A stretch of 64,000 nt of DNA, taken from Candidatus Latescibacterota bacterium. Its GTDB lineage: Bacteria > Latescibacterota > UBA2968 > GCA-2709665. A program made the translations under genes and the position numbers. Positions within the stretch are counted from its first letter, which is position 1. Each line of letters begins with the position of its first letter. The stretch spans positions 2,912,001 to 2,976,000 of the forward strand of contig CBDCOX010000002.1 in the NCBI GenBank assembly GCA_965219995.1, given 5' to 3'. The notes beneath the pieces are model-generated. The model was not told the origin of the DNA, ran no database searches, and saw only the letters and a program-made list of their open reading frames with translations. Shown piece after piece: positions 1-21,374 of this stretch.

Positions 1-129
1 AGGTTTGCATACCGGGGAATTCCGACACCCTGCTGTAACCTGAATGAGGTATCTTCTCCACCAGAGAGCTGCGTGCAGTGTTCTGTAGACGTATCAAGCC
101 GCTTACCACCACATCCGACGGAGGAACCA

Positions 130-3100
130 ATGTGTCATCAAATCAGGTCGCTGGGTCCGACTGTCGTCCTGTATATCTGTTTGCTTACAGCATCGGACTC
201 CGCATTCGCCCGGACCGACCTGCAGTTCAAGTTGCTGGGCGTCCATCATTCGGGGGTCTACGATGAAGGCGCTGCCGAGATTTCCGCATACGATCCGGCC
301 ACCCATCGCCTGTTCGTTGTCAATGCCAACGCGGCAACGATCGACATCGTCGATATCAGCGAGCCATCCGATCCATCCCTTGTAAATTCAATCAGGGTCT
401 CCGGTTATGGCGCCGCCGTGAACAGCGTCGCGGCCATGAACGGTATCGTGGCGGTTGCGGTGGAAGCCGAACGCGTTCAGGACCCCGGCAAGGTCGTTTT
501 CTTCGACGCCGACGGCGCCGTTCTCAATAGCGTGCATGTGGGTGTCCTGCCGGACATGCTCACATTCTCTCCGGATGGCACGCGGGTTCTGGTGGCCAAC
601 GAAGGGCAGCCCGGCCCGGACTATGCGATCGATCCGGAAGGGAGCGTGAGTATCATCGACCTGTCCGGCGGACCGGGAGCGGCCTCGGTCACCCACGTTA
701 CATTTGCCTCCTTTAATGGACAGGAGGCCCGGCTTCGCAGTCAGGGCGTGCGTATCTTCGGTCCGGGCGCAAGCGCCGCCCAGGACCTGGAACCGGAATA
801 CATCGCCCTGACTCCCGACGGTTCATCCGCGTTCGTTGCATTGCAGGAGAACAACGCCCTGGCTGTGGTGGACGTCGCCGCGGCGTCCGTATCAGCGATC
901 ATACCGCTCGGCTTCAAGGACCACGGCACGCCGGACAACGCGCTCGATGCCAGCGATAGAGATGGCGGCATCCTGATTCGAGAGTGGCCGGTGCTCGGCA
1001 TGTACCAGCCGGACGCAATCGCCGCGTTTGAATCCGGAGGTCGGACATTTGTGATTTCGGCGAACGAGGGGGACTCGCGGGACTATGACGGCTTCAGCGA
1101 AGAAGCCCGCGTTGCCGACCTCATGCTGGATCCCACGGCGTTTCCCAACGCCGCAAGCCTGCAGGATGACGCGCACCTGGGCAGGCTGAAGACGACCACG
1201 AGCCTGGGTGACGGCGACGGCGACGGCGACCACGATCGGCTGTTCGCCTACGGCGGCCGGTCTTTTTCCATCTGGGATGCCAGAGGAAATCTCGTATTCG
1301 ACAGTGGTGACGACTTCGAACGCCGTCTGGCGGATCTGATTCCCGAAGACTTCAACGCCAACAACGATGAAAACGGGTCGTTCGACAGCCGCAGCGACGA
1401 CAAGGGCCCCGAACCCGAGGCCGTGGTTACGGGAACCATCGACAACCGCGTCTACGCCTTCATCGGCCTTGAGCGGGTCGGCGGCGTCATGGTTTACGAT
1501 ATCTCCCTGCCTTCCGCGCCCACGTTCGTCACGTACGTCAACAACAGGGATTTCTCGGCCCGTTTCGACCCGGATGACGCCACCCGCGGCGACCTTGTCC
1601 GCACGGGGGACCTGGGCCCCGAAGGTCTCATCTTCATACCCGCCGCGGACGGCCCGACAGGTGAGCACCTGCTGGCCGTCTCCAACGAGGTGAGCGGATC
1701 GGTCTCCATCTTTCAAATTGTGACGCCCGCGACGCCGGCCCGCGAGTTTACACTCACCATTCTGCACAACAACGACGGCGAATCCCAATTGATAAATGCC
1801 GGCGAAGGGCTGGAGGACTTTGGCGGCGTTGACCGATTCAAGGCGCTGGTAGATCGGCTCAAAGCCGAAGCGCGGATGGACGGCGGGGTGATCATGGTCT
1901 CGTCGGGGGATAACTTCCTCGCGGGCCCGGAGTTCAACGTCAGCCTACGGCGCCCCGAATCCGCCCCCTTCTACGACGCCCTGGCGATGGACCTGATCGG
2001 GTACGATGCCGTCTGCATCGGCAACCACGACTTCGACTTCGGACCGGACGTCCTGGCCAGGTTCATTGCCGGGTACAGCCGCACCCGCCCGCCATATCTC
2101 AGTGCCAACCTCGACTTCGGGGACGAACCGGAACTGGCGGATCTCGTCGCTTCCGGCCGGATTTCCGGGAGCGCGGTCGTCAGAGTCGCCGGCCAACATA
2201 TCGGCATCGTGGGCGCCACGACCCCCGACCTGGCGTTCATCTCCAGTCCACGCAACGTGAGGGTGGACGGCCGGCTGCGGGAAGCCATCCAGGCCGAAGT
2301 GAACGGGCTGGCGCTACGCGGCGTGAACATTGTCGTTCTGATCAGCCACCTCCAGTCCATCAACAACGATCTGGAACTCGCCCGGCAATTGCGGGGCGTG
2401 GACGTCGTGATTGCGGGTGGCGGCGACGACATCCTGGCGAATCCCGGCGCCCGTCTCATTCCCGGCGACGAAGCCGGGATATCCGGACCGTACCCGATAC
2501 TCGAACAGGGCGCTGACGGGAACGACGTCCGCGTTGTCACCACCGCGGGGAATTATCGATACGTGGGCCGGTTCGTGGCCGGTTTCAATGCTGCCGGCGT
2601 CATTGCGTCTGTCGACCGGAACGCCAGCGGACCGGTGCGGGTGGCCGGCGGCGATCAGCCGGATGCCGCGGACCCCGACGCGGAAGTCCGGAAACGGGTC
2701 GTCGCCCCGGTCATCGATGCCCTTGCTTCCCTTGCTTCCAATCCGGTGGGCACGTCGAGCGTTGTGCTCGACGGCGCGAGGCGTAGAATTCGGACCCGGG
2801 AGACCAACGAAGGCAACCTGGTGGCCGACGCCCTCCGATGGCAGAGCGCACAGCTTGCCTCGTCTTTCGGCGTTCCCGTTCCACAGGTCGGCATCGTGAA
2901 CGGAGGGGGAATACGCAACGCCGGCGAAATTCCCGCAGGCGTGATATCCGAACTCACGACCTTCGATATGCTGCCATTTCCCAACTTCGTCACCGTCGTG
3001 CCCGCCGTTCCCGCGGCACAGTTCAGGGAAATCATGGAGAACGCGGTCTCGAAGGTGGAAGAAACCTCGGGGCGATTCGCCCAGATTTCGGGCTTCGCAA

Positions 3101-4065
3101 TGGTCTGGAATCCCGATGGCGTCGCCCAGGAACTGGATGAGAGCGGAAACGTCACGCGACGCGGCGGCCGGATCGTCAACATTACCCTCGACACGGGCGC
3201 AGGCATCGTCGAAAACGGAAACGTCGTATCCGGCGCGCCGGACATTCACGTGGCAACCGTTGACTTCCTCGCCAGGGGCGGTGACCAGTACCCCTATCGG
3301 GGCGCCCGCTTCACTCGTCTGGGCGTGACCTACCAGCAGGCGCTTGTCAATTTCATCAGGGAGGCCCTCGACGGCCGCATCACGGCGGCGGCGTATCCGG
3401 CAGGGGGACGTCGCCGGATTACCACCGGGCAACCGGCGCCGGCGGACGGCCCGAACGTCCGGAGTCGTTCTGTCGTACACGTCATCCTCACGGGAGACGT
3501 CGGGCCGGTACCGGACGCCCGGGTCGAGTTTTCCCGTGCCATCTCCGGCCGCGCGAAGGACTACCGGTGGACGGGAACAACCGATGCCGAAGGCCGCGCA
3601 ACGATAGAAATCCGACCTGAAAGCCGCCGAAGCGTCTCGGGGTACTACGCGGTTCGTGCAGTGGATATCACGGGCAATACGATCTCCAAATGGGAGAGCG
3701 TCCCGATCAACAGCGGGCGGGAAATCACACTCGTCCTGCCGGTGGGTGGCGTCGCCCGCGTGGAGGAGGAACAACTGCCGGCTGCGGAACCCCTGGCGCT
3801 TTACGCGAACACCCCCAACCCGTTCAACCCTTCCACCCGGATTGCCTACCGGATCCCCGAGCCCGGGCAGGTCGCCCTCACGGTTTACAACCTGCTGGGC
3901 CAGCAGGTCCGGGTTCTGGTAAGGGATCACCAGAGCCCGGGCCGGTACGAGGTCCAGTGGGACGGAAGGGACGGGGTCGGGCGTTCCGTTTCCAGCGGCG
4001 TTTATTACTACAGATTGGCGCATCCGGGCGGCACCCTCACCAATCGCATGCTCCTGGTCAAATAA
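130..4065 (+). CDS. Secreted multidomain phosphatase: choice-of-anchor I/atypical alkaline-phosphatase beta-propeller + 5'-nucleotidase (N and C domains) + unknown beta domain + FlgD-Ig (T9SS-like) C-terminal domain
   Basis: Signal peptide; ANEG, DLEPE, RSDDKGPEPE and GDLGPEG motifs of choice-of-anchor I; LHNND, SSGDNF, IGNHDFD and NGGGIR of 5'-nucleotidases; C-terminal NTPNPFNPSTRIAY..VYNLLGQQV..WDGRD..SSGVYYY..MLLVK. ATG at 130 follows GGAGG. Confidence 0.85.
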   Translation: MCHQIRSLGPTVVLYICLLTASDSAFARTDLQFKLLGVHHSGVYDEGAAEISAYDPATHRLFVVNANAATIDIVDISEPSDPSLVNSIRVSGYGAAVNSVAAMNGIVAVAVEAERVQDPGKVVFFDADGAVLNSVHVGVLPDMLTFSPDGTRVLVANEGQPGPDYAIDPEGSVSIIDLSGGPGAASVTHVTFASFNGQEARLRSQGVRIFGPGASAAQDLEPEYIALTPDGSSAFVALQENNALAVVDVAAASVSAIIPLGFKDHGTPDNALDASDRDGGILIREWPVLGMYQPDAIAAFESGGRTFVISANEGDSRDYDGFSEEARVADLMLDPTAFPNAASLQDDAHLGRLKTTTSLGDGDGDGDHDRLFAYGGRSFSIWDARGNLVFDSGDDFERRLADLIPEDFNANNDENGSFDSRSDDKGPEPEAVVTGTIDNRVYAFIGLERVGGVMVYDISLPSAPTFVTYVNNRDFSARFDPDDATRGDLVRTGDLGPEGLIFIPAADGPTGEHLLAVSNEVSGSVSIFQIVTPATPAREFTLTILHNNDGESQLINAGEGLEDFGGVDRFKALVDRLKAEARMDGGVIMVSSGDNFLAGPEFNVSLRRPESAPFYDALAMDLIGYDAVCIGNHDFDFGPDVLARFIAGYSRTRPPYLSANLDFGDEPELADLVASGRISGSAVVRVAGQHIGIVGATTPDLAFISSPRNVRVDGRLREAIQAEVNGLALRGVNIVVLISHLQSINNDLELARQLRGVDVVIAGGGDDILANPGARLIPGDEAGISGPYPILEQGADGNDVRVVTTAGNYRYVGRFVAGFNAAGVIASVDRNASGPVRVAGGDQPDAADPDAEVRKRVVAPVIDALASLASNPVGTSSVVLDGARRRIRTRETNEGNLVADALRWQSAQLASSFGVPVPQVGIVNGGGIRNAGEIPAGVISELTTFDMLPFPNFVTVVPAVPAAQFREIMENAVSKVEETSGRFAQISGFAMVWNPDGVAQELDESGNVTRRGGRIVNITLDTGAGIVENGNVVSGAPDIHVATVDFLARGGDQYPYRGARFTRLGVTYQQALVNFIREALDGRITAAAYPAGGRRRITTGQPAPADGPNVRSRSVVHVILTGDVGPVPDARVEFSRAISGRAKDYRWTGTTDAEGRATIEIRPESRRSVSGYYAVRAVDITGNTISKWESVPINSGREITLVLPVGGVARVEEEQLPAAEPLALYANTPNPFNPSTRIAYRIPEPGQVALTVYNLLGQQVRVLVRDHQSPGRYEVQWDGRDGVGRSVSSGVYYYRLAHPGGTLTNRMLLVK

Positions 4066-4092
4066 CGGTCGGCACAGACCTGGCGCACAGTC

Positions 4093-4129
4093 AAAAAAAC
4101 CGGGCGATCGACATACCGATCGCCCGGTT
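4093..4129. terminator. Rho-independent terminator-like hairpin (U-tract on the minus strand)
   Basis: Perfect 13-bp stem AACCGGGCGATCG/CGATCGCCCGGTT with a 6-nt loop, preceded by an A-run. Confidence 0.65.
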
Positions 4130-4333
4130 CAACTTGCAGAGACCGCGCCGAACGTCTCGCTACGGGCATCTCCCGGTGTGTTGTCCGCGAAATCACCTGA
4201 TTCCACGGATGGCTGCCTGGAACCCCCATCGGATTCTTCTTACGCGCCGCAATTTCCTTGGTCGGATGTGAACATCTGGCGGTCCTTGTGCGCAAGATGC
4301 AGGCCCGTCGGCTGCTTTCCGGCTTCCGTTCAC

Positions 4334-4362
4334 TTGACGAAGGCGTCCGTTTCCGGTATATT
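4334..4362 (+). promoter_or_regulatory. sigma70-type promoter for the RAPP leader/metal-uptake unit
   Basis: TTGACG-N17-TATATT, about 48 nt before ATG 4410. Confidence 0.6.
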
Positions 4363-4409
4363 TTCATGCGAATCCCGGTACGTTCTGTACTCTTCCGGAG
4401 ACGGCAGGG

Positions 4410-4688
4410 ATGTTTTTTTCCTACAAACGGATTCATCCGTTTGTTGTTTTCGCTCTGGCGATATTCGCGGCCTATCTCGCGGTATTTCTGCTTGCCGCGT
4501 ACCCCGGTCACGACCACGACCAGCAACAATGTACTGTCTGCGCCTGGTTCAATAGCCTGAGCTTCGCTTTGCCCGCATTACTGGCGGTGCAGCTCTGCTT
4601 CCTGCACTTCCGTCAATTGTTCTCCTCACGCCGCGCACTTCGCATCTCCTTCCTATTTCCCGAGGAACGCGCTCCACCCGTGTCCTGA
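4410..4688 (+). CDS. DUF2946/CruR-like leader peptide (TM segment, HDHD-QQQ-CTVC, C-terminal RAPP arrest motif)
   Basis: Hydrophobic N-terminus, GHDHDQQQCTVC, ends EERAPPVS; lies directly upstream of the lipoprotein and TonB-dependent receptor. Confidence 0.8.
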   Translation: MFFSYKRIHPFVVFALAIFAAYLAVFLLAAYPGHDHDQQQCTVCAWFNSLSFALPALLAVQLCFLHFRQLFSSRRALRISFLFPEERAPPVS

Positions 4689-4995
4689 ACCATCCTCCCG
4701 TGTCGTCAAGACGCACCCTTCGACGTTTCAACATTGATTCCAACTTAAGTGACTCCGGCTCGGGGCTTGCCCGAATCCGTACATGCGGGGATGCGGGATT
4801 ATCGTGCGTTCGAGTGGCCTTTAGTCCTTAGGGATCGGCATTGTGCCATCCCGGCTTCTTTCCGGAGGTCATCAGCCGCCCAAGGCATTGGCATGTCGAC
4901 AGATTGTCGACCGATATGAAACACGCCTTCCACTCAGGCGGATGCCCACGCGAGTTTTGCGGCAAAATGAAAAAATGGTATACAGGAGAACATTG

Positions 4996-6246
4996 ATGTT
5001 CAGCGCGCTGAAAATCCAAAGATCCCCTCTGTTAATCGCAGCGGCGGCGGTAGCGGTCATCCTGGCCGGCTGCGGAAAAGAAGACCCCATTACGCCACAG
5101 GAAGAGCATTACGAAGCCGAAGGCCTCGTCCTCCTCGACTCCGGCCAGCGATTCTTCCGGTATTTCCAGGGCAGGATCGACTCGGGCGACGGCCGGGCGG
5201 AAGCCCTGGAAGTCCATCACGGCGAAGTCACCGCCAAGTGGAACATCCGCTTCCTGGACGGGGACGGAAACGAAATGGCGCCCCCCACCGGCGAGGGATT
5301 CACTTTCACCTGGGAGATTGAGGACAGGTCAATTGTCGAAGTCGTCCAGGACGAGGGGGAAGCGGGTAAATTCGTCTTTGCCCTGCGCGGCCTGGAAGAT
5401 GGCGAAACCACCATCAGGCTTCAGATCTCGCACGAAGGCCACGTGGACTTCACCACGCTGCCGCTCCCGGTACACGTGGTCGGAGAGTTCGAGGCGGAAG
5501 GGCTTGTCATCATCGAATCCGGCGTTCGATTCTTCCGCTATTTCCAGGGCGAGATCGACTCTGACGAAGGTCGGGTGTCGGAACTCACGGCGCCGATCGG
5601 CCTGACGCCTCACTGGCGCATCGCGTTTCTGGATGAACACGGCGAAGAAATAGACCCGCCGGACGATCCCGAATTCTCGTTCGCCTGGATCATTGCCGAC
5701 TCCGACATCCTCGCAGTCCACCAGGACGAGGGCGACGAGGGCTCGTTCGACTTCCACCTGCGCGGCTTGCACGAGGGCGAGACCACCATTGTATTTGGAG
5801 TCAGACACGAGGGTCACATCGACTTCCGCACACAACCCATCCCCGTGCACGTGGAGTCGCAGGAGGGTCAGCACGAAGAACCCGTGGGCGTGCGGCTCAA
5901 GGAGGAAGACAGCGGTGAGTTGCTCACGCAGGCGCCCTTAAAGGGAGAGGGCACAGCCACCGAAACTCTGACGGTTGCCGCAGGCGACACCACCGACCAC
6001 ATCGCGACCTTCTTCTTCGACGAGCACGACGTGGAATTCCAGCCGGAAGCGCCGGACGAGACGCTGGGCATTGCGGTGGCGGACACCTCGCTGCTCGGAA
6101 TCGATCCGCCCGTAGCGCCCGAATACTGGGCATTCAGACTCATCGGCAAGAAGGCCGGCACGACGACCATTACGCTTTCCATTCTCCACGACGGTGAGGC
6201 CGAGGACGAATTCGCGCCGATTTCCGTGACGATCACCGCACCGTAG
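4996..6246 (+). CDS. Acidic/His-containing lipoprotein with three tandem ~125-aa beta-rich repeats (putative metal-binding partner of the TBDR)
   Basis: AGGAG SD at 4984-4988; lipobox ILAGC; repeats EAEGLV..RFFRYFQG..LRGL.GETTI..HEGH.DF.T.P.PVHV twice, with a degenerate third copy. Confidence 0.8.
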   Translation: MFSALKIQRSPLLIAAAAVAVILAGCGKEDPITPQEEHYEAEGLVLLDSGQRFFRYFQGRIDSGDGRAEALEVHHGEVTAKWNIRFLDGDGNEMAPPTGEGFTFTWEIEDRSIVEVVQDEGEAGKFVFALRGLEDGETTIRLQISHEGHVDFTTLPLPVHVVGEFEAEGLVIIESGVRFFRYFQGEIDSDEGRVSELTAPIGLTPHWRIAFLDEHGEEIDPPDDPEFSFAWIIADSDILAVHQDEGDEGSFDFHLRGLHEGETTIVFGVRHEGHIDFRTQPIPVHVESQEGQHEEPVGVRLKEEDSGELLTQAPLKGEGTATETLTVAAGDTTDHIATFFFDEHDVEFQPEAPDETLGIAVADTSLLGIDPPVAPEYWAFRLIGKKAGTTTITLSILHDGEAEDEFAPISVTITAP

Positions 6247-6269
6247 AATGAAACTCGGCGGGAGGACGA

Positions 6270-8588
6270 GTGCCGTCCTCCCGCCGTCTGCAACGCGGGA
6301 GCACGTCCCAGATGGCTGATGTACACCGCATGATGCGACTGCTTCAGGGCGGCGCCGCCAACCCCTGTTCCGGCAGCCGGTTGTTCGTTGTCGGAGCGGT
6401 GCTGGCGCTGCTGTCCCCGGCCTTTCTTGCGGGCATTGGTTGGACGGATCAGCCTGTGTTGATCGAAGGGTACGTCTTCGACAGCGAGTCCGGACTGCCC
6501 ATCCGGAACGTGAACGTCCAGCCCGCGGGTCCCGCCGCAGGCACGTCTACCGACGAAAAGGGCCGGTTCGTGCTCCATCTCTCAGGGGGTATATACAGGC
6601 TGTCCTTTACCCACGTCGGCTATCAGGATGCGCACTACGACCTGACCGTCTCTGGGGCAAAGCATCCCGTTGTCTATCAGGAACTGGCGCGACTGGACCT
6701 TAAGCTGGATCCCATCGACGTCGTGGCCAGGCGCACCGAAACCCGGTTTGACGAACTCCAGCAGGCCACCCGCGTGCTTTCGGGCGACGAACTCCGGAAG
6801 AAATACAGCATGACGCTGGCCGAAACCATGAAGAACGAACTCGGAGTGGCCATCCGCAGCATGGGTCCGGCGCCCGCCCGTCCGGTCATCCGCGGCCTCA
6901 GCGGCGACCGCGTCCAGATCAACGTCGACGGCATCGAGTCGCAGGACCTCTCATCCACGTCCGCGGACCACGCCGTGACGGTGGAGACGTTCAACGCGGA
7001 ACGGCTGGAAATCATCCGCGGACCCCGAACGCTGCTGCACACGTCTTCGGCCGGCGGCGGCGTTATCAACGTCGTCAAGCACAAGATTCCGGAAATCCGT
7101 CCGGAGCGCTTCTTCGGGAGCGTGGGCGCCTACGGGGAAACGGCGAACCGGGGTTATTTCTCGTCCGCCGCCCTCACCGCGCCCATTGGGCCGCTCGCGC
7201 TATATGCCGAATCCACGTACCGGGATACCCGGGACATCCAGACCCCGGTCGGCAAACTCGCCAATACGCCCATCAACACCCATACCTATACACTCGGACT
7301 GTCCTATGCGCGCGACCGGGGTTATATCGGCGCTTCTTTCGATCAGTTCGAAACGCAATACGGCATTCCAGGCGGATTCATCGGCGCGCATCCCAACGGC
7401 GCGGACCTGGATATCGTACGGCGGGTCTTCGACGGGAAGGCGGTCTACCGGTTCGACGGCGGGACAGCAGACAGGTTCGAGGCGGGCTTCACGAAGGCCT
7501 ATTACTACCACGTCGAGTACGAGTCAAGCGGCAGCATCGGATCCGAGTTCCTCTTTCATGACTACAGTGGAGAACTCAAACTCTACCTGAACACGGGAAA
7601 CCAGGAGCAAAACACCGTTCTCTCTTCCGGTTTTCAACACCGGAACCTGAAACTGGGCGCTTTTGTCTTCACGCCGCCCACGCGAAAGCAGGACCTCAAC
7701 GTCGGGTTGTATCACGAGACGACCTACCGCAATATCGAACTTCAGGCCGCCGCCCGGTACAACTATGCCACCTTCGACCCGCGCCTCCAGACGATCACCA
7801 ACAAGAGCCTGGACATAGACCGCACCTTCCATACATGGTCCGCGGCCTTCAGTCCGCTCGTGCCGGTCACCGACCAGCTGACAGCAGGCGTGAGCCTCAG
7901 CCGTTCCCAGCGCGCCCCCACCATCGAGGAACTCTACAACGAGGGACCGCACCTGGCTGCTTACACCTTTGAGATTGGCAATGTCGAACTCAATGCCGAG
8001 CGCAGTTTCGGCCTGGAGGCCTTCCTCCACTTTCTGCAACCGGGCTTCGATCTGGTCTTCACCGGATTCTGGAACGAGTTCGGCAATTACATCGCGCCTC
8101 GAAACACCGGAGAAATCAACTATGCGCAACTCCTCCCCATCTACGCTGCCGAAGGTATCGACGCGAGAATGACGGGCGTGGAAAGCCACATGAAGTGGCG
8201 TCCGAACGCGCGCCTCGAACTGGAAATGAACCTGAGCCACGTGCGCGGCGAAAACCGGGACGAACGGATGCCCCTTCCCGAAATGCCGCCCCTGAAGTTC
8301 GTGGGCAGCGCGACCTACCGGCACCCAATGCTGACCGGGGGAGGAACCGTGGAATGGGCCGCGGGACAGAAACGCGTGGATACGTACGAAGACCCCACCT
8401 CCGGTTATTCCGTCTTCGGCGTTTACATACAGCGCGACTTCCTCGCGAATCAGGCGCGCCACAGCGTGATCCTCTCCCTTGAGAATCTCTTCGACACGGA
8501 ATACCGGAATCACCTGTCGCGCATCCGCTCGGTGATGCCCGAAACGGGCCGGAGCCTGAAGTTGAACTACAGGATGTATTTCTTCTAG
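6270..8588 (+). CDS. TonB-dependent receptor, ZnuD-like, with N-terminal carboxypeptidase-regulatory-like domain
   Basis: GPAPARPVIRGLSGDRV, SADHAV, IEIIRGP-like plug motif, RAPTIEELYNEGPH, NLFD..Y.NHLS, terminal Phe. Start uncertain (GTG 6270, ATG 6312 or ATG 6330). Confidence 0.9.
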   Translation: MPSSRRLQRGSTSQMADVHRMMRLLQGGAANPCSGSRLFVVGAVLALLSPAFLAGIGWTDQPVLIEGYVFDSESGLPIRNVNVQPAGPAAGTSTDEKGRFVLHLSGGIYRLSFTHVGYQDAHYDLTVSGAKHPVVYQELARLDLKLDPIDVVARRTETRFDELQQATRVLSGDELRKKYSMTLAETMKNELGVAIRSMGPAPARPVIRGLSGDRVQINVDGIESQDLSSTSADHAVTVETFNAERLEIIRGPRTLLHTSSAGGGVINVVKHKIPEIRPERFFGSVGAYGETANRGYFSSAALTAPIGPLALYAESTYRDTRDIQTPVGKLANTPINTHTYTLGLSYARDRGYIGASFDQFETQYGIPGGFIGAHPNGADLDIVRRVFDGKAVYRFDGGTADRFEAGFTKAYYYHVEYESSGSIGSEFLFHDYSGELKLYLNTGNQEQNTVLSSGFQHRNLKLGAFVFTPPTRKQDLNVGLYHETTYRNIELQAAARYNYATFDPRLQTITNKSLDIDRTFHTWSAAFSPLVPVTDQLTAGVSLSRSQRAPTIEELYNEGPHLAAYTFEIGNVELNAERSFGLEAFLHFLQPGFDLVFTGFWNEFGNYIAPRNTGEINYAQLLPIYAAEGIDARMTGVESHMKWRPNARLELEMNLSHVRGENRDERMPLPEMPPLKFVGSATYRHPMLTGGGTVEWAAGQKRVDTYEDPTSGYSVFGVYIQRDFLANQARHSVILSLENLFDTEYRNHLSRIRSVMPETGRSLKLNYRMYFF

Positions 8589-8754: not shown

Positions 8755-8797
8755 CAGTATGCACTCACCATTCCATCGAAAACACTCGAGGTACTCT

Positions 8798-9040
8798 ATG
8801 GCTGAATCAATGATTGATAAGGATGGCCACCTCAGGTTGCCCAAGGAAGTCCGGGAGCACCTGCATTTGAATCCAGGAGATCGACTCAATCTTGTCATTC
8901 AGGACAATGGAGACGTGGTCATAAAACCAAATATGCGAGACGTTCGAGATCTGAAGGGAATTCTGACTCCGGCTTCGCAGTCAGTCACCATTGAGGATAT
9001 GAATCGGGCTATTCGGCAACGAGGCAGCCATACACAATGA
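8798..9040 (+). CDS. vapB: AbrB/MazE/SpoVT-family antitoxin
   Basis: IDKDGHLRLPKEVREHLHLNPGDRL is an AbrB-fold signature; ATGA overlap with the PIN gene. Confidence 0.85.
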   Translation: MAESMIDKDGHLRLPKEVREHLHLNPGDRLNLVIQDNGDVVIKPNMRDVRDLKGILTPASQSVTIEDMNRAIRQRGSHTQ

Positions 9041-9423
9041 TTGGGCTGGATACAAACGTACTGGTTCGTTATCTAACACAAGATGACCCGGAACAGTCGA
9101 GAATTGCAACACGAGAAATCGAAACGAGTGACGAGTCTTTTTTCATCACAACGACTGGATTGTGCGAGCTCGTTTGGGTCTTGGAAACGGCCTATGGATT
9201 TAACCGATCGGCAATTTCGCACACACTGAGCGTAATACTTCAAACACGTCAATTCGTATTTGACGACAAATTACCTCTGGAAAACGCGCTGGACGAATAC
9301 CAACATGAAAAGGGTGATTTTTCGGATTACGTACTTGGCCACAAGAGCAAACTGGCTGGATGCGACAAGACACTCACGTTTGACCGTGCCTTGAAAAATC
9401 ACGCGCTTTTTGAATTATTGTGA
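9037..9423 (+). CDS. vapC: PIN-domain toxin (VapC)
   Basis: MIGLDTNVLVRYL, ELVWVL, DFSD and TFD acidic PIN motifs. Confidence 0.9.
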   Translation: MIGLDTNVLVRYLTQDDPEQSRIATREIETSDESFFITTTGLCELVWVLETAYGFNRSAISHTLSVILQTRQFVFDDKLPLENALDEYQHEKGDFSDYVLGHKSKLAGCDKTLTFDRALKNHALFELL

Positions 9424-14763: not shown

Positions 14764-14832
14764 ACCGGTCTTCCATGTTCGCAATCGCCCGGATCCATTG
14801 GAGTACCGGCCCCGGGGTTTCACGCATCGGTC
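14703..14832 (+). repeat. Repeat B copy 1 (intact yidD 3' end + decayed lgt 5' end)
   Basis: About 110/130 identical to 22486-22614; encodes MFAIARIHWSTGPGVSRIG versus Lgt MFVIAQIHWSADPEIFRIG. Confidence 0.92.
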
Positions 14833-14879
14833 GTTCAGGTCTTTTCACGGAAAATGTCCATCCTCCCACGCCTACCTCT

Positions 14880-15248
14880 ATGCAACGAGACACCCGTCAA
14901 CGCCGGGCGATCCGCGTCGTATTCATAAACGCCGGGCGCCCTCTCACGTCTGAAGAGGTCCTCGAGTACGGCCAACAGATCGTTCCGTCACTCGGTGTGG
15001 CAACCGTATACCGGAACGTGAAGATTCTCGTTGGCGAGGGGTGGCTATCGGAAGTGCAATTCAGGGGCGGCGGGCTTCGATACGAGTTGGCCGACCGTCC
15101 GCATCACCACCACTTCCTCTGCCGCTCCTGTGATCAGGCGTTCGACATCCATCGTTGCCCTGACGAAGTCGAAGCTCTGGCGCCCGACGGCTTCGAAGTC
15201 GACGGCCACGAGCTGGTTCTTTTCGGTCGCTGCGCGGCGTGTGCGTGA
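14880..15248 (+). CDS. Fur-family transcriptional regulator (Zur/Fur-like)
   Basis: TRQRRAI, LGVATVYR, HHHHFLCRSC, HELVLFGRCAAC. An in-frame ATG at 14775 comes from the lgt duplicate. Confidence 0.9.
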   Translation: MQRDTRQRRAIRVVFINAGRPLTSEEVLEYGQQIVPSLGVATVYRNVKILVGEGWLSEVQFRGGGLRYELADRPHHHHFLCRSCDQAFDIHRCPDEVEALAPDGFEVDGHELVLFGRCAACA

Positions 15249-15288
15249 CTGGCGTCCAGCACACACTACGCACCTCTCCGACACCCTC

Positions 15289-15318
15289 TTGACTTGATAG
15301 CGATAAATCATTATCATT
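15289..15318 (+). promoter_or_regulatory. sigma70 promoter overlapped by a Fur/Zur-type box
   Basis: TTGACT-N17-TATCAT, with GATAGCGATAAATCATTATC spanning the spacer and -10 (close to GATAATGATAATCATTATC). Confidence 0.65.
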
Positions 15319-15428
15319 ACTGTCGTGCCGCTTACGCCGTTGACGCCGCAGACCTGGTCCAGGTCTGCACGGCGTGGGGGTTCGACGTCCAGATTCCAAT
15401 GCTCGCACCTCTGCTCCAGGAGAACTAG

Positions 15429-16850
15429 ATGAACACGCCGCGAAAAGTACCTGTTTCCATCCTCACCGGCTTCCTCGGCTCTGGCAAGACGACGCTGCTC
15501 AACCGGATCTTGAGTGAGGAGCACGGCAAGCGCATTGCGGTGATCGAGAACGAGTACGGCGAGGTCGGCATCGATCAGGCGCTCGTCATCGACGCTGACG
15601 AAGAGATCTTCGAGATGTCGAACGGATGCATCTGCTGCACGGTGCGCGGAGACCTGATTCGCGTACTCGGCAATCTCATGAAGCGCCGCGACAAGTTCGA
15701 CTATGTGCTGGTGGAGACCACAGGGCTCGCCGATCCCGGCCCGGTCGCTCAGACCTTCTTCATGGACGATGAGATTCGTGCGGAGTTCTCGCTTGACGGG
15801 ATCGTCACGCTCGTCGATGCAGCCCACATCGAGCAGCAGCTCGGACGAAGCGACGAAAGCAAGGAGCAAATCGCATTTGCAGACGTCCTCGTGCTCAACA
15901 AGACGGACCTCGTCGATGGCGAGGCGCTCGACAGGCTCGAAGCTCGGCTTCGGGACATGAACCGAATGGCGCAGGTCGTACGCAGCGAGCGGGCGAACGT
16001 CTCCGTCGATACTGTACTCAATCTCGACGCCTTCGACCTGGACCAGGCGCTCGAGCGTCGCCCCACTTTTCTCGAGCCCGAGTATCCCTTCGAATGGACT
16101 GGAGTCTACTCGCTCGGTATCGGCCGCTACGAACTCAGCCTCGCCGATGGACCTGATCCGGCGATGTCGCTCGTCGTCGTGTCCGACCAGGGCACGGATG
16201 ACGCTGCCCTCCGTGAGGGTGCTGAGTGGTGTGTGCGGCGGTACGCCGAACCTGCGGCACTCATTCGCCCAGGGGAAGAACTCGCGGTCGGAAAGCATGT
16301 GAACCTCCGGCTGGATTCCCCGGGGCGCAAGTCCTTCTTCCTGGATGTCAATTCGAAGGTGCGGGTTGGCCTTTACGCCCAGCACCTCGCGGAGGAGTTC
16401 GATCTCCAACTCACGAACGCGGGTCGAGCGCCTATAGAGATAGAGGAGCGTCCGGGCTCCGAGCCTGCCTCCACAGCGGCCGGCACCCTGTCCAACAAGG
16501 GAGCAGCCGTTCCCGTCGAGGTCGAGCGAACCTGGGTCGCACAGCACGAACACGACGACGAGGTGAGTTCGATCGCGATTGAGCGGGACGGCGACGTCGA
16601 TCCAGGCAGGATCGACGCCTGGCTTGGCAAACTGCTCAGTGAGCGCGGGGTGGACATCTTCCGAATGAAGGGCTTCATCAGCCTCGCGGGCGAGTCGCGT
16701 CGCTTCGTCTTCCAGGGGGTTCACATGCTCTTTGACGGCCAGCCGGATCGTGAATGGGGCGACGCGCCACGCCGCAATCAGCTCGTCTTCATCGGCCGCA
16801 ACCTCGATGAGCAGAGCATGCGGCAGGCGTTCGAAGCATGTCTGATTTGA
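15429..16850 (+). CDS. COG0523/CobW-family G3E GTPase metallochaperone
   Basis: GFLGSGKTT, ENEYGE, GCICC, ETTG, NKTD; CobW_C motifs RMKG..QGVH..LVFIG; ~150-aa internal insertion. Confidence 0.95.
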   Translation: MNTPRKVPVSILTGFLGSGKTTLLNRILSEEHGKRIAVIENEYGEVGIDQALVIDADEEIFEMSNGCICCTVRGDLIRVLGNLMKRRDKFDYVLVETTGLADPGPVAQTFFMDDEIRAEFSLDGIVTLVDAAHIEQQLGRSDESKEQIAFADVLVLNKTDLVDGEALDRLEARLRDMNRMAQVVRSERANVSVDTVLNLDAFDLDQALERRPTFLEPEYPFEWTGVYSLGIGRYELSLADGPDPAMSLVVVSDQGTDDAALREGAEWCVRRYAEPAALIRPGEELAVGKHVNLRLDSPGRKSFFLDVNSKVRVGLYAQHLAEEFDLQLTNAGRAPIEIEERPGSEPASTAAGTLSNKGAAVPVEVERTWVAQHEHDDEVSSIAIERDGDVDPGRIDAWLGKLLSERGVDIFRMKGFISLAGESRRFVFQGVHMLFDGQPDREWGDAPRRNQLVFIGRNLDEQSMRQAFEACLI

Positions 16851-17878
16851 ATGTCGACAGACCCAGGGGCGTTCTTCGCCGGGGCTGGTCCGCGGAGGTC
16901 GGCGACTATGCCATCGCCGGGGGTTGGAGCCTGCGCGGTAAAGCGCTGATGGTCGGTGATGCCGCGGGCGGCGTCTACGCATTCGACGGCAGGTCCGGCG
17001 CGGCCGCCTGGAAGAGGCGCGGGGTTCATGAAGGTGGTGTGCTCGCTGTGGCGATCCACCCGAGCGGAAACTCGTTCGCGACGGCCGGTCAGGACAGCCG
17101 AGTCTTACTCTGGAGAGCCGCCGAAGGTCAGGTAAGCCGGGCCATCGACGTCGGAAGCGGTTGGGTAGAAAACGTGGCGTGGTCGCCGGACGGCCAATGG
17201 CTGGCGGCCTCCTGCTCCCGCCAGGTTCGTGCGTATGGAGCGGACGGCGCGGAGGTCTGGCGATCTGATGACCATCCCAGCACCGTCAGCGCGATCGCCT
17301 GGTCAAGCGCCGGGGAGCTGGCGACGGCCTGTTACGGTCGGGTGACGTTCTTCGACGCGCCCACCGGCGAGCTTCGGCAGAAGCTGGAGTGGCAGGGATC
17401 CCTGGTGTCGTTGGTACTGAGCCCGGACGGAGACGTCGTGGCCTGCGGCAGCCAGGACAACTCGGTGCACTTCTGGCATCGCTCCACGGAGCAGGACTCC
17501 ATGATGTCAGGATATCCTGCCAAGCCGTCGGCCCTGGCTTTCGATGACACCGGCACCCTCCTGGCCACCGGCGGCGGAGAGGCAGTGACGGTCTGGAGCT
17601 TCCAGGGAAGGGGTCCCGAAGGCACGCGGCCCGGCGTTCTGGAGCTTCATGTTCAACCCGTCACGACGCTTGCCTTCGCTCGCCGCGGGATGCGCCTGGC
17701 ATCGGGAGGCCGCGACGGCGCCGTGGTTGTGTGGTCGCTTCAGAGAAATGGAGAAGGCGGTTCGATAGGGGCCGCGGCTGTGGGGGGCGTAGTGGCTGAA
17801 TTGTACTGGCGGCCAGACGGCCGCGCGCTTGCCGCGCTCGACGCGCGGGGTGGCGTGACGGTTTGGCGAATAGGGTGA
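16838..17878 (+). CDS. WD40-repeat beta-propeller protein
   Basis: Repeated AWSPDG..LA / ATAGQD.V.LW / GSQDNSVHFW blades; 13-nt overlap with the COG0523 gene. Confidence 0.88.
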   Translation: MSDLNVDRPRGVLRRGWSAEVGDYAIAGGWSLRGKALMVGDAAGGVYAFDGRSGAAAWKRRGVHEGGVLAVAIHPSGNSFATAGQDSRVLLWRAAEGQVSRAIDVGSGWVENVAWSPDGQWLAASCSRQVRAYGADGAEVWRSDDHPSTVSAIAWSSAGELATACYGRVTFFDAPTGELRQKLEWQGSLVSLVLSPDGDVVACGSQDNSVHFWHRSTEQDSMMSGYPAKPSALAFDDTGTLLATGGGEAVTVWSFQGRGPEGTRPGVLELHVQPVTTLAFARRGMRLASGGRDGAVVVWSLQRNGEGGSIGAAAVGGVVAELYWRPDGRALAALDARGGVTVWRIG

Positions 17879-17984
17879 GCAAGGGCCAGAATTGCCCTGC
17901 CCAAACATCTCCACCTCGATCCTGAAGCTCAAGACGCATTCTCTGCCGACGGAACGCCTCTCCTTTGTCAACCCAAAATAGTAC

Positions 17985-18012
17985 TTGCCCATGAGAATAA
18001 GTATCACATGAT
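17985..18012 (+). promoter_or_regulatory. Candidate promoter with Fur/Zur-like box upstream of the ABC module
   Basis: TGAGAAT-A-AGTATCA (7-1-7, imperfect) between TTGCCC and CATGAT. Confidence 0.45.
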
Positions 18013-18190
18013 TTCAGGGGAAACAACCTCTAAGGATTTCTGAATCACTCACTCGCAGGGTTTGTCGGGGCATGCCTCTCGTCTGCATGTGTCCTGCTTT
18101 TGGTGGGGCATCTTCTGAATCGTCGCTTGTGCTCTTTGTGGCCAATTCAACGGTTATCCTCTTTCAAATGGAGGCTGATCGGAGACTGCG

Positions 18191-18853
18191 ATGTCACTAT
18201 TGACGGTCACGAATCTGGAAAAGGCTTACGCTTCACCTGAAGGTACACAGAGCCGCATCATTGATGTTCCCCATTTCGAGATAGACGCAGGAAGTCAAAT
18301 TGCGCTCCGAGGGAGCAGCGGTGTTGGAAAGACGACATTTCTGAATCTGATCGCCGGAATTCTACAAGCCGACAACGGAAGCATTGTGCTCGCTGACGAG
18401 GAGATGACTGCTCTTTCGGAATCGGAGCGGGACAGGTTGCGTGCCCACAACATCGGGTATATTTTCCAGACCTTCAATCTGCTTGCCGGCTACACAGCCT
18501 TAGAGAACGTTACGCTCGGAATGATGTTCGGAAAGGGAATTGACGCCGATTTTGCCCAACATCTGCTTGAACGGGTCGGACTTGGCGATCGAATGCAGTA
18601 TCGCCCTTCGCAGCTATCGGTCGGGCAGCAACAACGTGTTGCGGTTGCCCGCGCCGTTGCCAATCGACCCCGTCTCGTACTCGCCGATGAACCGACCGGC
18701 AATCTGGATTATCACCATGCCAACGAAGCGGTAACACTCATCCGTGAAGTATGCTGCGAAAACAGTGCAGCGCTGCTTATTGTCAGCCACGACTCAAGAG
18801 TTCTCGGCCAATTTGAGGAGGCAATGGATTTTGCGCAAGTAAATCGCGTATAA
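18191..18853 (+). CDS. ABC ATP-binding protein (LolD/ZrgB-like)
   Basis: GSSGVGKT, FQTFNL, LSVGQQQRV, LADEPTGNLD, SHD. Confidence 0.93.
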   Translation: MSLLTVTNLEKAYASPEGTQSRIIDVPHFEIDAGSQIALRGSSGVGKTTFLNLIAGILQADNGSIVLADEEMTALSESERDRLRAHNIGYIFQTFNLLAGYTALENVTLGMMFGKGIDADFAQHLLERVGLGDRMQYRPSQLSVGQQQRVAVARAVANRPRLVLADEPTGNLDYHHANEAVTLIREVCCENSAALLIVSHDSRVLGQFEEAMDFAQVNRV

Positions 18854-18953
18854 ACTACCACAACCCGGTTTCTGTTTCACGGATTTTCAACGTGAATTCC
18901 GCTGTTTTAAACATCAATCCAGATGTTCCCCTGTGGAAGAATGAAGGAGAAAC

Positions 18954-20234
18954 GTGTTTGAGTCGAAAATGAACAAACGGATCGGGTTGTATTTCATCGT
19001 TCAACGCAGTCTTCGACAACACGCGCTCTCGACCCTCATCACAACATGTTCAATCGCGCTCGGTACGGGGCTTGTAATGGCGGTTATCGCCATCAGAGCG
19101 CAATCCGTCTCGGCATTCACGGGCGGTCCGACTGGCTTTGATGCGGTATTGGGAGCACGCGGCAGTCCGTTGCAATTGGTGCTGAACACCGTATTTCATC
19201 TCGAAACCTCGCCGGGGAATATCCCCTGGACGATGTATCAGGCGATGAAAGACGATCCGCGTGTCGAGCTCGCCATTCCTTACGCGCTTGGAGACAATTA
19301 TTACGGTTTCCGTATCGTCGGAACGGAAATTGAGTTGTTCACGGAGTTTGAATACCGCAAAGGGGTGCGGTTTCGGACGCATGGGGATGGACGTTTTTTC
19401 GATCCCGACCGGCAGGAGGCCGTCCTTGGCAGCTATGCCGCACAGAAGTTGAACCTGAAGGCGGGGGATACGTTTCAGCCGTATCACGGCCTGGTGTTCG
19501 ATGAATCCATGCGGCATGATGAACAATATGTTGTTGTTGGTGTGCTCGAAGCGACCAATTCACCCTCCGATCGTGTCATCTGGATTCCAATCGAGGGAGT
19601 TTATCGGCTGGAGGGGCATGTGTTGCGGGGCGGCGGTGATGAATATGTTGCCAAACCCGGTCGAGAGATCCCCGACGCACATAAAGAGGTTAGCGCAGTC
19701 ATGCTGAAGTTTCGGAATCCGCAGATCGGTTTCATGATGGATGCAATGATCAACAAACAGGGGAAGGTGGCAACGTTGGCATGGCCCATCGGCGCTGTGA
19801 TGGCCGGCCTGTTTGACAAAATCGGTTGGATGAATCAAATCCTGGCACTCGTTTCCTATCTGGTTGTCCTCGTTGCGGCGGGTTCAATTCTCGCAAGCAT
19901 CTACAACTCAATCAATGAACGGCGGCGCGAATTCGCCATTCTGCGATCACTTGGCGCACGTCGCAAAACGGTGTTTGCGGTAATTGTGCTGGAAGCTGCA
20001 TCGATCGCGGCGTTAGGGGTCATCGCAGGATTTCTGGTCTATGCTGCGATTTTCACCTCAGCATCAGAAATTGTCCGCGCTCAGACTGGTATCGTCCTGG
20101 ACCTGTTGAAATTTCATCTCGCGTTTGTAGTCGTGCCCGTTTGCGTCATACTTCTGGGTGTGATGGCTGGCATTGTGCCCGCATTCAAGGCGTATCGGAC
20201 GGATGTTGCCACGAATCTAACACCCATAAGCTAA
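18954..20234 (+). CDS. ABC permease, MacB/FtsX (ZrgC-like) family
   Basis: GARGSPLQLVLNTVFH, NERRREFAILRSLGA, PAFKAYR; GTG start after AAGGAG. Confidence 0.9.
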   Translation: MFESKMNKRIGLYFIVQRSLRQHALSTLITTCSIALGTGLVMAVIAIRAQSVSAFTGGPTGFDAVLGARGSPLQLVLNTVFHLETSPGNIPWTMYQAMKDDPRVELAIPYALGDNYYGFRIVGTEIELFTEFEYRKGVRFRTHGDGRFFDPDRQEAVLGSYAAQKLNLKAGDTFQPYHGLVFDESMRHDEQYVVVGVLEATNSPSDRVIWIPIEGVYRLEGHVLRGGGDEYVAKPGREIPDAHKEVSAVMLKFRNPQIGFMMDAMINKQGKVATLAWPIGAVMAGLFDKIGWMNQILALVSYLVVLVAAGSILASIYNSINERRREFAILRSLGARRKTVFAVIVLEAASIAALGVIAGFLVYAAIFTSASEIVRAQTGIVLDLLKFHLAFVVVPVCVILLGVMAGIVPAFKAYRTDVATNLTPIS

Positions 20235-20526
20235 TGTCCTGTCGCGAAAACACTTCACCGGTCGGCCGACGATTCATCCCGTCTGCCGACGCTGCTTGCA
20301 CTGCCTGCACTGAGCTTGCCGAAGTGGCTTGTCGAACGGAAAAGCCCCATCAACTGCCACCAGGCGGGCAGAAGGTTCTCCAGGAAGGTCAATCTCACGG
20401 ATTCGTGATGGTTCCACCATGAGCCTTTTGCTGTTTGTCTTTGGTTCTGGCTGACTGCTGAGAGCTGATTGCTGATCGCTGCATTTCTCCGGCCGGATTC
20501 GGGCAACTTTTTCCGGGCCAGAACAC
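20234..20526 (-). mobile_element. MITE-like element copy 1 (TA-flanked, imperfect TIRs, CAGC heptamer array)
   Basis: Ends AATGTCCTGTCGCGAAAACACTT and revcomp AGTGTTCTGGCCCGGAAAAAGTT (16/23); GCTGANN tandem at 20450-20481; homologous to 28787-29005 and 51036-51283. Confidence 0.6.
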
Positions 20527-20584
20527 TGCAAGACGTACGATACAACAAAATCGTCAAGCCAATGGTGTAGAAGGGGACATTGTC

Positions 20585-21118
20585 ATGAGAGTCCAAAGAA
20601 AGCTCTTGATACGAGCGGCAATTCTAACGGTTATTATTGCTCACATCGGTTGCGAGAAAATGGAGGAGCATCGCCACGAACACGGGGAACCACACGAAAC
20701 CAATGCACATCATGAGCATATTGCACCTCACGGCGGGACATTGGTTGTATTTGGCGATGAGTTTGCGCACATTGAGTTTGTGCTGGACCGGACAACGGGA
20801 AAACTCACTGGCTACGTGCTTGACGGTGAAGCGGAAAAATCGGTGAGGCTCTCACAGAAGACAATCGAACTCAAGGTACATCGAGAAGATGCCGAGACCG
20901 ACTTTACTTTGCAACTTTCAGCGATTGCAAACGTCCTGACCGGAGAGACCCAAGGCGACACCTCCCAATTTGAGGCCCAATCGGACGCACTTAAGGGAGC
21001 ATCGGAATTTCATGCAGAGATTGTCTCGATTGAAGTAATGGGTCAGATGTTCACTCATATTGAATTTGAGTTTCCCGAAGGCAACGAGGCAACGGAAAAT
21101 AAGCATGGTGGACATTAG
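20585..21118 (+). CDS. His-rich exported (probable lipo)protein, putative metal-binding partner of the ABC system
   Basis: Signal ending ..IGC; EEHRHEHGEPHETNAHHEHIAPHGG; AHIEFV; C-terminal FPEGN. Confidence 0.78.
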   Translation: MRVQRKLLIRAAILTVIIAHIGCEKMEEHRHEHGEPHETNAHHEHIAPHGGTLVVFGDEFAHIEFVLDRTTGKLTGYVLDGEAEKSVRLSQKTIELKVHREDAETDFTLQLSAIANVLTGETQGDTSQFEAQSDALKGASEFHAEIVSIEVMGQMFTHIEFEFPEGNEATENKHGGH

Positions 21119-21231
21119 TCTCAATTTGAAAAAAGAAAAATTGGCCACAAAAAGCACAAAAGACACAAAAAGAATCCGTGCAAAGCGTCGTGTGTGGTAA
21201 CGCGGTGACCCTGCAGTTATTTCCTCACCGA

Positions 21232-21371
21232 GCCGAAAAGGTCGTCGGGAAGCACGTTTTTTCCGTTCACGTCCAGTGACCAGAAGGATCATAGAAATCA
21301 GCAGTTAAATCGCCTTTATTCACTTGCACATACTCGAATTAACGTACCCGAATAATGACGAATCAAGGTTA
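21232..21371 (+). repeat. Repeat A copy 2
   Basis: 125/140 identical to 14323-14462; ends 3 nt before ATG 21375. Confidence 0.92.
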
Positions 21372-21374
21372 GTC

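Follow-up and report, generated by a model that had tools for sequence, protein, structure and literature searches.

A 92-codon open reading frame as a candidate metal-responsive arrest leader for a lipoprotein and ZnuD-like receptor operon

What regulates a metal-uptake operon when its promoter carries no Fur-like box and its first reading frame encodes a small peptide ending in RAPP? The question is raised by a locus in a 64,000-nucleotide (nt) stretch of contig CBDCOX010000002.1 (assembly GCA_965219995.1, positions 2,912,001 to 2,976,000), here called the window. Its initial annotation described a promoter, a 92-amino-acid (aa) upstream open reading frame (uORF) with a terminal RAPP, a 307-nt untranslated spacer that starts C-rich and G-poor, and then metal-uptake genes, which encode a lipoprotein and a ZnuD-like TonB-dependent receptor. 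Every element of this layout was recovered in place (Table 1), the first 60 nt of the spacer containing 21 C and 8 G. The promoter is indeed free of such a box: a Fur/Zur-type box model, taken from the genome's own box upstream of an operon of znuC-znuB-znuA and a Fur-family gene, has no copy with five or fewer mismatches between 4000 and 5100, either near the leader promoter or in the spacer. We consider it quite likely that the ORF is an arrest leader that regulates the lipoprotein-receptor operon. The explanation that best accounts for the locus as a whole, and one that is probably correct, is that this leader is of the CruR/CutF class and controls both of these genes.

The ORF shows the substitution pattern of a coding sequence. 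Across ten orthologs the ratio of nonsynonymous to synonymous substitution (dN/dS) is 0.32 in frame as against 1.12 and 1.33 in the shifted frames, and the variable sites at the three codon positions number 45, 35, and 67 of 91. A search with the single peptide gave a match at E≤1 in 37 of 41 related genomes; within the genus, all 14 other genomes match at E<1e-35, and several of these harbor two to five copies. Because of this codon-level pattern and the conservation in the genus, the ORF is regarded as a translated gene. A profile made from 34 leader peptides (A1) matches 49 of the 168 genomes of the phylum at E≤0.001, with 18/21 in family f1, 24/31 in f2, 6/76 in f4, and 0/39 in the other eleven families. 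The leader is conserved across one order of the phylum and is often found in multiple copies per genome; the window's own genome contains one match, both in the peptide search and in the A1 profile search. When the genome was scanned for small frames with RAPP-like motifs at their ends, its high GC content made the output very noisy, and the window's leader alone stood out.

The peptide has two hydrophobic segments, with hydropathy peaks at residues 16-25 and 51-58. The first is a predicted transmembrane (TM) or export segment, recognized from hydropathy only, in which a 19-residue peak of 2.79 is centered on residue 20 and preceded by K6 and R7. Between the two segments lies an acidic loop that carries H34, D35, H36, D37, and the C41-x-x-C44 pair, and the second segment leads into a basic tail with five arginines, RAPP at residues 87-90, V, S, and the stop. 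Eight residues (H34, C41, C44, W46, P84, R87, P89, and P90) are invariant in the 34 leader sequences, and the CxxC cysteines are invariant in 56 of 56 wider relatives as well. The extra His/Asp ligands that had been pointed out from the sequence are conserved features, with H34 the invariant one among them. Position 88 is A or S across the relatives, the R87, P89, and P90 around it being unchanged, and the distance from CxxC to R[A/S]PP is 42-46 residues in 87 of 89 sequences (42 in the window). Paralogous leaders harbor one to three H-D-H-D/E-x-x-C units before the CxxC (e.g., L020:10170-10478:- and L037:1103-1399:+) at a constant CxxC-to-arrest-motif distance; the number of units could tune metal affinity or stoichiometry.

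Relationship to known regulatory leaders is seen at the level of profiles. Alone, the leader matches Pfam DUF2946 (PF11162) with 16.5 bits (E 0.015) in an alignment that reaches the C-terminal end of the profile, and matches at E≤0.1 are found for 11 of the 34 close relatives and for 18 of the 56 wider ones, the best close relative giving E 1.1e-4. A profile search of 1.84 billion representatives returned 57 proteins at E≤0.001, of 85-136 residues with one outlier excepted, which share a plan of TM, His-rich stretch, CxxC, hydrophobic stretch, and G/S-R-A/S-P-P. In a second library, 14 of 70 profile hits bear a precomputed PF11162 label. When A1 was compared by hhalign with these 14 proteins, which had been retrieved with a profile that included the window's own peptide, a match with 97.4% probability (E 1.5e-11) resulted, whose 81 columns run from the TM segment as far as RAPP; the CxxC-RAPP spacing in the labeled set is 46. 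On account of the sub-threshold DUF2946 matches, the PF11162-labeled relatives, the hhalign result, and the fixed CxxC-RAPP spacing, the leader is, as judged by profile homology, a remote member of the CruR/CutF superfamily and not an analog. The CruR/CutF-type assignment of the initial annotation, to which the CxxC, the terminal RAPP, and the C-rich end region also correspond, therefore holds. Its further description of the leader as a non-proteobacterial variant names nothing new by itself, since surveys have thousands of leaders of this type from outside the Proteobacteria.

RAPP-like tetrapeptides are among the most avoided in bacterial proteomes and yet are concentrated at the C-termini of small exported proteins, and the RAPP arrest of CruR has been shown in vitro at this position (Fujiwara et al. 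2025, PMC12992588). By reference to CruR toeprinting and to the ApdA/ApdP structures (PMC12992588, PMC10951233), the stall is predicted to occur with the P site occupied by Pro89 and the A site by Pro90, and the ribosome footprint at this point would extend over about 4660-4690. The leaders of a sister family within the order end in RSPP, a motif described as partially permissive in ApdA/ApdP and strongly avoided in proteomes (PMC12992588). At the predicted stall, C44 lies 45 residues and H34 55 residues from the peptidyl-transferase center, and therefore the ligand loop would be just out of the tunnel with the second hydrophobic segment still inside. Given the dimensions of the tunnel and the translocon, this geometry is compatible both with folding on metal binding at the exit port and with capture inside the translocon or immediately past it. 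Extracytoplasmic sensing is possible but not indicated, as a ligand distance of 45-55 residues does not separate the ribosome exit or translocon from the periplasm.

The mechanism proposed for the leader would run as follows. It would be transcribed from its own conserved promoter and then translated, with its first hydrophobic segment engaging the membrane-insertion machinery. On reaching the arrest motif, the stalled ribosome would shield the C-rich, weakly structured RNA around the stop, transcription would pass through the spacer, and the uptake genes would be made. Binding of metal to the H/D/H/D...CxxC cluster, placed 42 residues before the arrest motif and presumably just past the tunnel exit, may cause the nascent chain to fold or to be pulled, whereupon the freed ribosome would terminate and Rho would stop transcription in the spacer, such that uptake is off when metal is plentiful. 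Four parts of this scheme are inferred by analogy with characterized relatives, namely that the ribosome arrests, that metal relieves the arrest, which way regulation runs, and that Rho provides the output.

The arrangement that this mechanism invokes recurs. Conservation of the uORF upstream of orthologous operons had been put forward as a check, and the order of leader, lipoprotein, and CarboxypepD_reg receptor is observed in 17 of 19 regions with a recognized leader. For the receptor, ZnuD is the best match in both NCBIfam (NF038289, 200.5 bits) and the PDB (4rdr, E 6e-37, the next chain giving 4e-10 and OprC 8e-9), in keeping with the ZnuD-like target first suggested for this metal-uptake operon. 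The lipoprotein matches no Pfam family above its gathering cut-off. Its AlphaFold2 model (mean predicted local distance difference test score 75.7) consists of three tandem Ig-like sandwiches, for which a fold search returned generic tandem Ig-like matches only (S-layer proteins, filamin, cadherins) and no functional lead. It has eleven invariant histidines, including those of an H-E-G-H-x-D motif that ends domains 1 and 2, and in the sister family a protein of ~160 aa is a single copy of this domain, 52-60% identical. Its location between leader and receptor suggests that it is a receptor-associated, possibly surface, metal-capture partner. Two marine metatranscriptome runs (X19, X20) each contain three small contigs, 95-99% or 90-95% alike, whose positions are within the lipoprotein gene (5322-5483 and 5613-5795), across its junction with the receptor gene (6055-6322), and within the receptor gene (8086-8301). 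These are contigs in which DNA carry-over is possible, and none falls on the leader or spacer, where a lack of coverage proves nothing; the junction-bridging contigs of this close relative give a weak hint that the lipoprotein and receptor are expressed together.

Variations on the arrangement are also found. In one relative (L036, G011:C18:98000-110000) the order is leader, lipoprotein, second leader, second lipoprotein, and receptor, and iterated leaders are present too in L019, L020, and L021; in L019, two tandem leaders are followed by the receptor directly, without a lipoprotein gene. Where an arrest leader sits within an operon, the genes behind it would come under a gate of their own. 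In a complete relative (L018, G002:C1:1364200-1373000), the orthologous receptor gene falls into three or more ORFs (440, 237, and 242 aa), of which the first has CarboxypepD_reg and Plug only; this gene is possibly a pseudogene behind an intact leader. Several sister-family loci have a chlorite-dismutase-like (Chlor_dismutase) protein after the receptor (L029 4128-4838 on the minus strand, L037 8173-8901 on the plus strand).

Which metal might such a leader sense? Zinc is the most likely effector, a choice made from context and with middling confidence, because ZnuD is the best receptor match, zinc-type modules follow the leaders of relatives, a zinc-type island lies nearby, and copper-handling neighbors are lacking. 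The modules concerned, each headed directly by a leader, are ZnuA plus ABC-3 (L028) and an ATP-binding cassette (ABC) ATPase with an FtsX/MacB permease and DUF3299 (L027). The zinc-starvation-type island is found outside the operon, 6 kb downstream (Table 1). Elsewhere in the genome, a second Fur-family gene stands 3' of znuC-znuB-znuA (G000:C2:4160039-4163003), accompanied by two boxes, at 4159831 and 4163196, that are near-identical. No copper-handling gene (PCuAC, YcnI, CopC, or multicopper oxidase) sits beside any leader examined.

Rather unlikely, in our estimation, is that the same kind of arrest leader senses copper, or else nickel or cobalt, with the receptor importing that metal. It is a reading with precedent, in that all of the characterized relatives (CruR, CutF) respond to copper and that CxxC typically serves as a Cu(I) site; Ozturk et al. 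(2023, PMC9973294) propose nickel or cobalt for the His-only clusters of the family, and the receptor has weaker matches to OprC and to a TonB-copper model (56.7 bits). The gap between the ZnuD and OprC matches, the absence of copper-handling genes next to the leaders, and the Fur-family/COG0523 island 6 kb away nevertheless all speak for zinc.

The second part of the question concerns how the state of the ribosome would be read out. Between 4560 and 4760, C outnumbers G in the RNA by 75 to 38. GC skew over 78 nt reaches its minimum of -0.49 at 4620-4697, a value of -0.45 being attained by 0.23% of the window's 78-mers, and predicted pairing probability is lowest within this C>G bubble (0.40-0.49 vs 0.55-0.67 elsewhere). 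Between 4620 and 4760 there are 36 YC (pyrimidine-C) dimers, a count reached by 3% of window segments. The skew minimum lies near the leader stop in most of 34 homologs, and the genome has a rho gene. In CruR, a Rho-utilization region is placed in the 3' end of the leader, termination occurs in the long intergenic region, and the stalled ribosome blocks Rho; long intergenic distances are typical downstream of cruR homologs (Roy et al. 2022, PMC9426467). Because the window's clade is without a helix at the ribosome-binding site (RBS) and has a long C-rich spacer that matches the CruR arrangement, Rho-type attenuation is our best guess for its output, although a tentative one that leans on the CruR precedent.

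In the spacer, the first ~45 nt after the stop (8 of 8 orthologs) and the last ~60 nt are kept, and the middle is poorly kept, with insertions and deletions. The 17-nt stretch over the Pro-Pro-Val-Ser-stop codons is repeated 20 nt further on in another frame, and the second copy is kept in 8 of 8 orthologs. A tandem TGTCGAC element at 4894-4915, each unit of which is palindromic, retains its inverted-repeat character in orthologs through changes on both sides; it lies ~80 nt ahead of the lipoprotein start codon and may be either an RNA hairpin or an operator for a protein. Searches of the spacer revealed no intrinsic terminator, no second promoter-like site (by consensus scan), and no Rfam match. 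The minimum free energy of the whole spacer has a z-score of -1.47, and the RNAalifold covariation term is only -0.76, with compensatory changes in 4 of 66 pairs.

A quite different design is apparent in the sister family, where spacers are 96-288 nt long as against mostly ~250-630 nt in the window's family. In 11 of 12 of its loci, an uninterrupted helix of 11-15 base pairs (bp) joins the last three leader codons, the stop, and the next 1-3 nt to a segment that ends 2-7 nt 5' of the next gene's ATG, a length matched by 0-11% of shuffles. A compensatory change is seen in one locus, whose TAA stop is matched by TTA in the RBS segment, the other loci combining TGA with TCA. By the principle known from CutF and SecM, a ribosome stalled between the two prolines of R-S-P-P would cover the 5' half of the helix and free the RBS. 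By contrast, a helix of at least 11 bp next to a start codon occurs in 1 of 22 loci of the window's family. Sister families of one order thus appear, from their sequences, to be clearly split between two expression platforms. The same uptake logic is predicted for either platform, with stalling keeping the genes on and metal binding releasing the ribosome and turning them off.

It is accordingly conceivable, but unlikely, that the window's output is also translational, with the stalled ribosome opening an RNA structure that hides the lipoprotein RBS. Beyond the sister-family helix and its compensatory change, this would be in line with an RNAalifold model of seven window orthologs in which UCCU, directly behind the stop, is paired to AGGA in the Shine-Dalgarno (SD) sequence downstream. 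That helix, however, comprises four invariant pairs spanning 300 nt, without covariation, and the pairing between the leader 3' end and the lipoprotein RBS in the window amounts to 5 contiguous bp (-13.1 kcal/mol, z -0.24 vs shuffles), in a family where the long helix is all but missing. RBS masking in the window was also sought over the 670 nt downstream and rejected: the best helix, of 10 bp, adjoins no start codon and is equaled by 18% of shuffles. A 9-nt complement to the SD at 4618-4626, suggested by a single-sequence fold, was set aside too, not being conserved in orthologs.

Besides the copper precedent, several points weigh against a zinc-responsive, CruR-like leader with a Rho-type output. 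The leader alone falls under the Pfam DUF2946 gathering cut-off (16.5 vs 23.7 bits), and the receptor is far under the ZnuD cut-off (200.5 vs 950), such that its substrate is not established by the match. The translational design of the sister family weakens a simple transfer of the CruR output model. Two small conserved hairpins are present inside the C-rich region, which is therefore not fully unstructured, and conserved Pro/Ser/Leu/Arg codons at the end of the peptide account for part of its C>G bias. To our knowledge, sequence gives no reliable prediction of Rho-dependent termination. Finally, the window spacing of 42 is three residues under that of CruR, where CxxC and RAPP are separated by 45 residues and five added residues break regulation (PMC9426467).

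Much less probable is that the spacer holds a promoter or operator of its own for the lipoprotein and receptor genes, to which the leader contributes little. The length of the spacer, its palindromic tandem TGTCGAC, and its conserved last ~60 nt might suggest as much, but the consensus scan found no promoter-like site within it, and it also lacks a Fur/Zur-type box. The closest candidate, TTGCGG-16-TATACA, is unconserved and would place the transcript start inside the SD, and the leader-plus-operon arrangement is kept across two families. The promoter at 4334-4362 is the sole promoter-like site in 4066-5100 (consensus scan, for which shuffles give a mean of 0.5). Least probable of all is that the RAPP is incidental and that the small protein serves the uptake system as a stable membrane component, binding metal or playing an accessory part, or else monitors Sec/YidC or disulfides: its two hydrophobic segments and short acidic His/Cys loop do resemble a small membrane hairpin protein and the CxxC could be a redox pair, but the proteome-wide avoidance of RAPP-like motifs, their concentration at the C-termini of small exported proteins, the invariant R87, P89, and P90, and the near-constant CxxC distance are hard to explain for a mature protein, and no Sec or YidC gene follows.

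An arrest leader of the CruR/CutF class thus remains the preferred reading, and it leads to a more speculative proposal, which we hold to be possible though doubtful: that the clade employs a nascent-chain zinc sensor, an H-D-H-D...CxxC loop 42-43 residues from the arrest motif, in place of a Zur operator to control an outer-membrane zinc-uptake module, and that within one order the leader family has become coupled to two platforms, RBS unmasking through the last codons in the sister family and, in the window's family, a C-rich spacer of 300 nt on which Rho presumably acts. Part of the setting for such a proposal is already in the literature. DUF2946 has been described as occurring mostly in Proteobacteria (PMC9426467), and 5,334 CutF-like proteins have been reported, 40% of them (normalized) in Bacteroidota, with frequent TonB-type neighbors and with the authors' suggestion that not all are copper-specific (PMC9973294). 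The supplement of Fujiwara et al. contains at least nine RAPP uORFs directly before genes annotated as zinc-regulated TonB-dependent receptors. As this survey sorts each uORF by the gene immediately downstream, a leader whose next gene encodes an unannotated lipoprotein would escape the TonB-related category. The main texts of PMC9426467, PMC12992588, and 10.1101/2022.11.11.516240 make no mention of zinc (their supplements may hold more cases), the string "Gemmatimonad" is absent from the supplement files of PMC12992588 that were searched, which are all but one, and a literature search found no report of a zinc-sensing arrest leader. RAPP leaders before zinc-regulated receptors are therefore already known, as are such leaders outside the Proteobacteria; what is new here is a Gemmatimonadota clade under the Pfam threshold, its coherent zinc context, and the split between two platforms in sister families.

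This class of leader has been shown to act with copper only. A zinc-responsive member, if true, would extend nascent-chain sensing to a second essential metal and provide a route to zinc control without Zur. Two close clades with a common sensor and different RNA outputs would also constitute a comparative system, in effect a natural experiment, in which two readouts of a stalled ribosome, Rho and RBS unmasking, could be set side by side. The operon, moreover, defines an unannotated His-rich Ig-like lipoprotein that accompanies the receptor.

The coordinates of the locus and of the zinc-type island are given in Table 1. Upstream of the leader promoter lies a gene for a 1330-aa secreted protein (73-4065, plus strand) with choice-of-anchor I, a metallophosphatase with 5'-nucleotidase C, and a C-terminal FlgD_ig/type IX secretion system-like sorting domain, followed 3' by a strong bidirectional terminator-like hairpin (4097-4130). 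Directly 3' of the receptor gene, a MazE/AbrB-type antitoxin and PIN-domain toxin pair (8759-9423, plus strand) marks the end of the operon. A terminator-like hairpin inside the leader (4423-4444) is not kept in the orthologs and is treated as chance. Sponge metagenome runs contain nearly all of this DNA, and the host appears to be an uncultured sponge-associated bacterium; a relative of the leader with 77% identity is attributed by its source to a Gemmatimonadota metagenome-assembled genome.

Table 1. Features of the leader locus and of the zinc-type island, in window coordinates.
Feature	Position	Strand	Basis or remarks
Sigma-70-like promoter, TTGACG-17-TATATT	4334-4362	+	10/12 consensus matches; both hexamers invariant in 8/8 aligned orthologous loci
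Leader RBS region, GGAG ~11-14 nt 5' of the ATG	4395-4409	+	CCGGAGACGG.AGGG stretch kept across the genus
92-codon leader ORF, candidate DUF2946-like (CruR/CutF-type) arrest peptide	4410-4688	+	dN/dS, invariant residues, hhalign
Putative metal-ligand cluster codons, H34-D-H-D-Q-Q-Q-C41-T-V-C44	4509-4541	+	Sequence, alignment of paralogs
C>G bubble, candidate Rho-utilization region, leader 3' end and spacer start	4560-4760	+	Base composition, skew, predicted pairing
RAPP codons (residues 87-90)	4668-4679	+	Sequence; predicted stall with Pro89 (4674-4676) in the P site and Pro90 (4677-4679) in the A site
Tandem 17-nt repeat, copies 4673-4689 and 4693-4709	4673-4709	+	82% identical
Untranslated spacer, 307 nt	4689-4995	+	Leader stop to lipoprotein start
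Lipoprotein gene, three tandem Ig-like domains	4996-6246	+	Lipobox and conserved RBS; no Pfam family
ZnuD-like TonB-dependent receptor gene, CarboxypepD_reg (N-terminal), Plug, and barrel domains	6270-8588	+	Pfam, NCBIfam, PDB match
Zinc-starvation-type island (also encodes a WD40 protein)	14775-22490	+	Gene content and box
Fur-family gene	14775-15248	+	In the zinc-type island
Fur/Zur-type box	15296-15315		In the zinc-type island; 3/20 positions differ from the znuC box
COG0523 GTPase gene (cobW and CobW_C)	15429-16850	+	In the zinc-type island
MacB-type ABC ATPase and FtsX/MacB permease genes	18191-20234	+	In the zinc-type island
YceI+DUF3299 protein gene	21324-22490	+	In the zinc-type island

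The place of this leader among known systems can be judged from its likenesses and differences. ApdA, ApdP, and SecM have in common with it that they are small membrane or secretory proteins with an RAPP (or RGPP) close to the C-terminus and a regulated gene downstream (PMC10951233, PMC12992588). Those proteins, unlike the leader proposed here, monitor Sec or YidC activity; no Sec or YidC gene is found downstream of the leader, where the lipoprotein and TonB-dependent receptor genes stand instead.

CutF of Rhodobacter capsulatus is likewise an exported, DUF2946-like leader that has a Cys motif and arrests at a Pro-rich C-terminal sequence, and in which the stalled ribosome opens a stem-loop that hides the next RBS, the same design as that seen in the loci of the sister family (PMC9973294, 10.1101/2022.11.11.516240, 10.1101/2025.02.05.636593). 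It differs in having CxxxC and PPP and in its logic, as copper induces stalling and so turns on a detoxifying oxidase. The window locus, on the other hand, controls uptake genes and is without a convincing RBS-masking helix. Among receptors, ZnuD of Neisseria meningitidis (4rdr) is the nearest relation; the window's receptor has, in addition, the N-terminal CarboxypepD_reg domain and a dedicated lipoprotein partner.

The closest parallel is with CruR (Bp2923) of Bordetella pertussis, although the two are not identical in form. CruR has 145 aa, the window's peptide 92, and the latter is the one with a shorter spacing and a Pfam score under the cut-off. It adds the H-D-H-D cluster and a second hydrophobic segment, and its operon has a lipoprotein gene between leader and ZnuD-like receptor and no PepSY_TM partner. 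The host, moreover, is placed in the Gemmatimonadota. What the two share is more extensive: each stands first in an operon with a TonB-dependent transporter, each has an N-terminal export or TM segment, a CxxC, and, at the C-terminus near the stop, an RAPP at a fixed distance from that CxxC, and in each a C>G bubble covers the 3' end of the leader ahead of a long intergenic region. By analogy, the same uptake logic would be expected of both, in which metal frees the arrest and expression is turned off.

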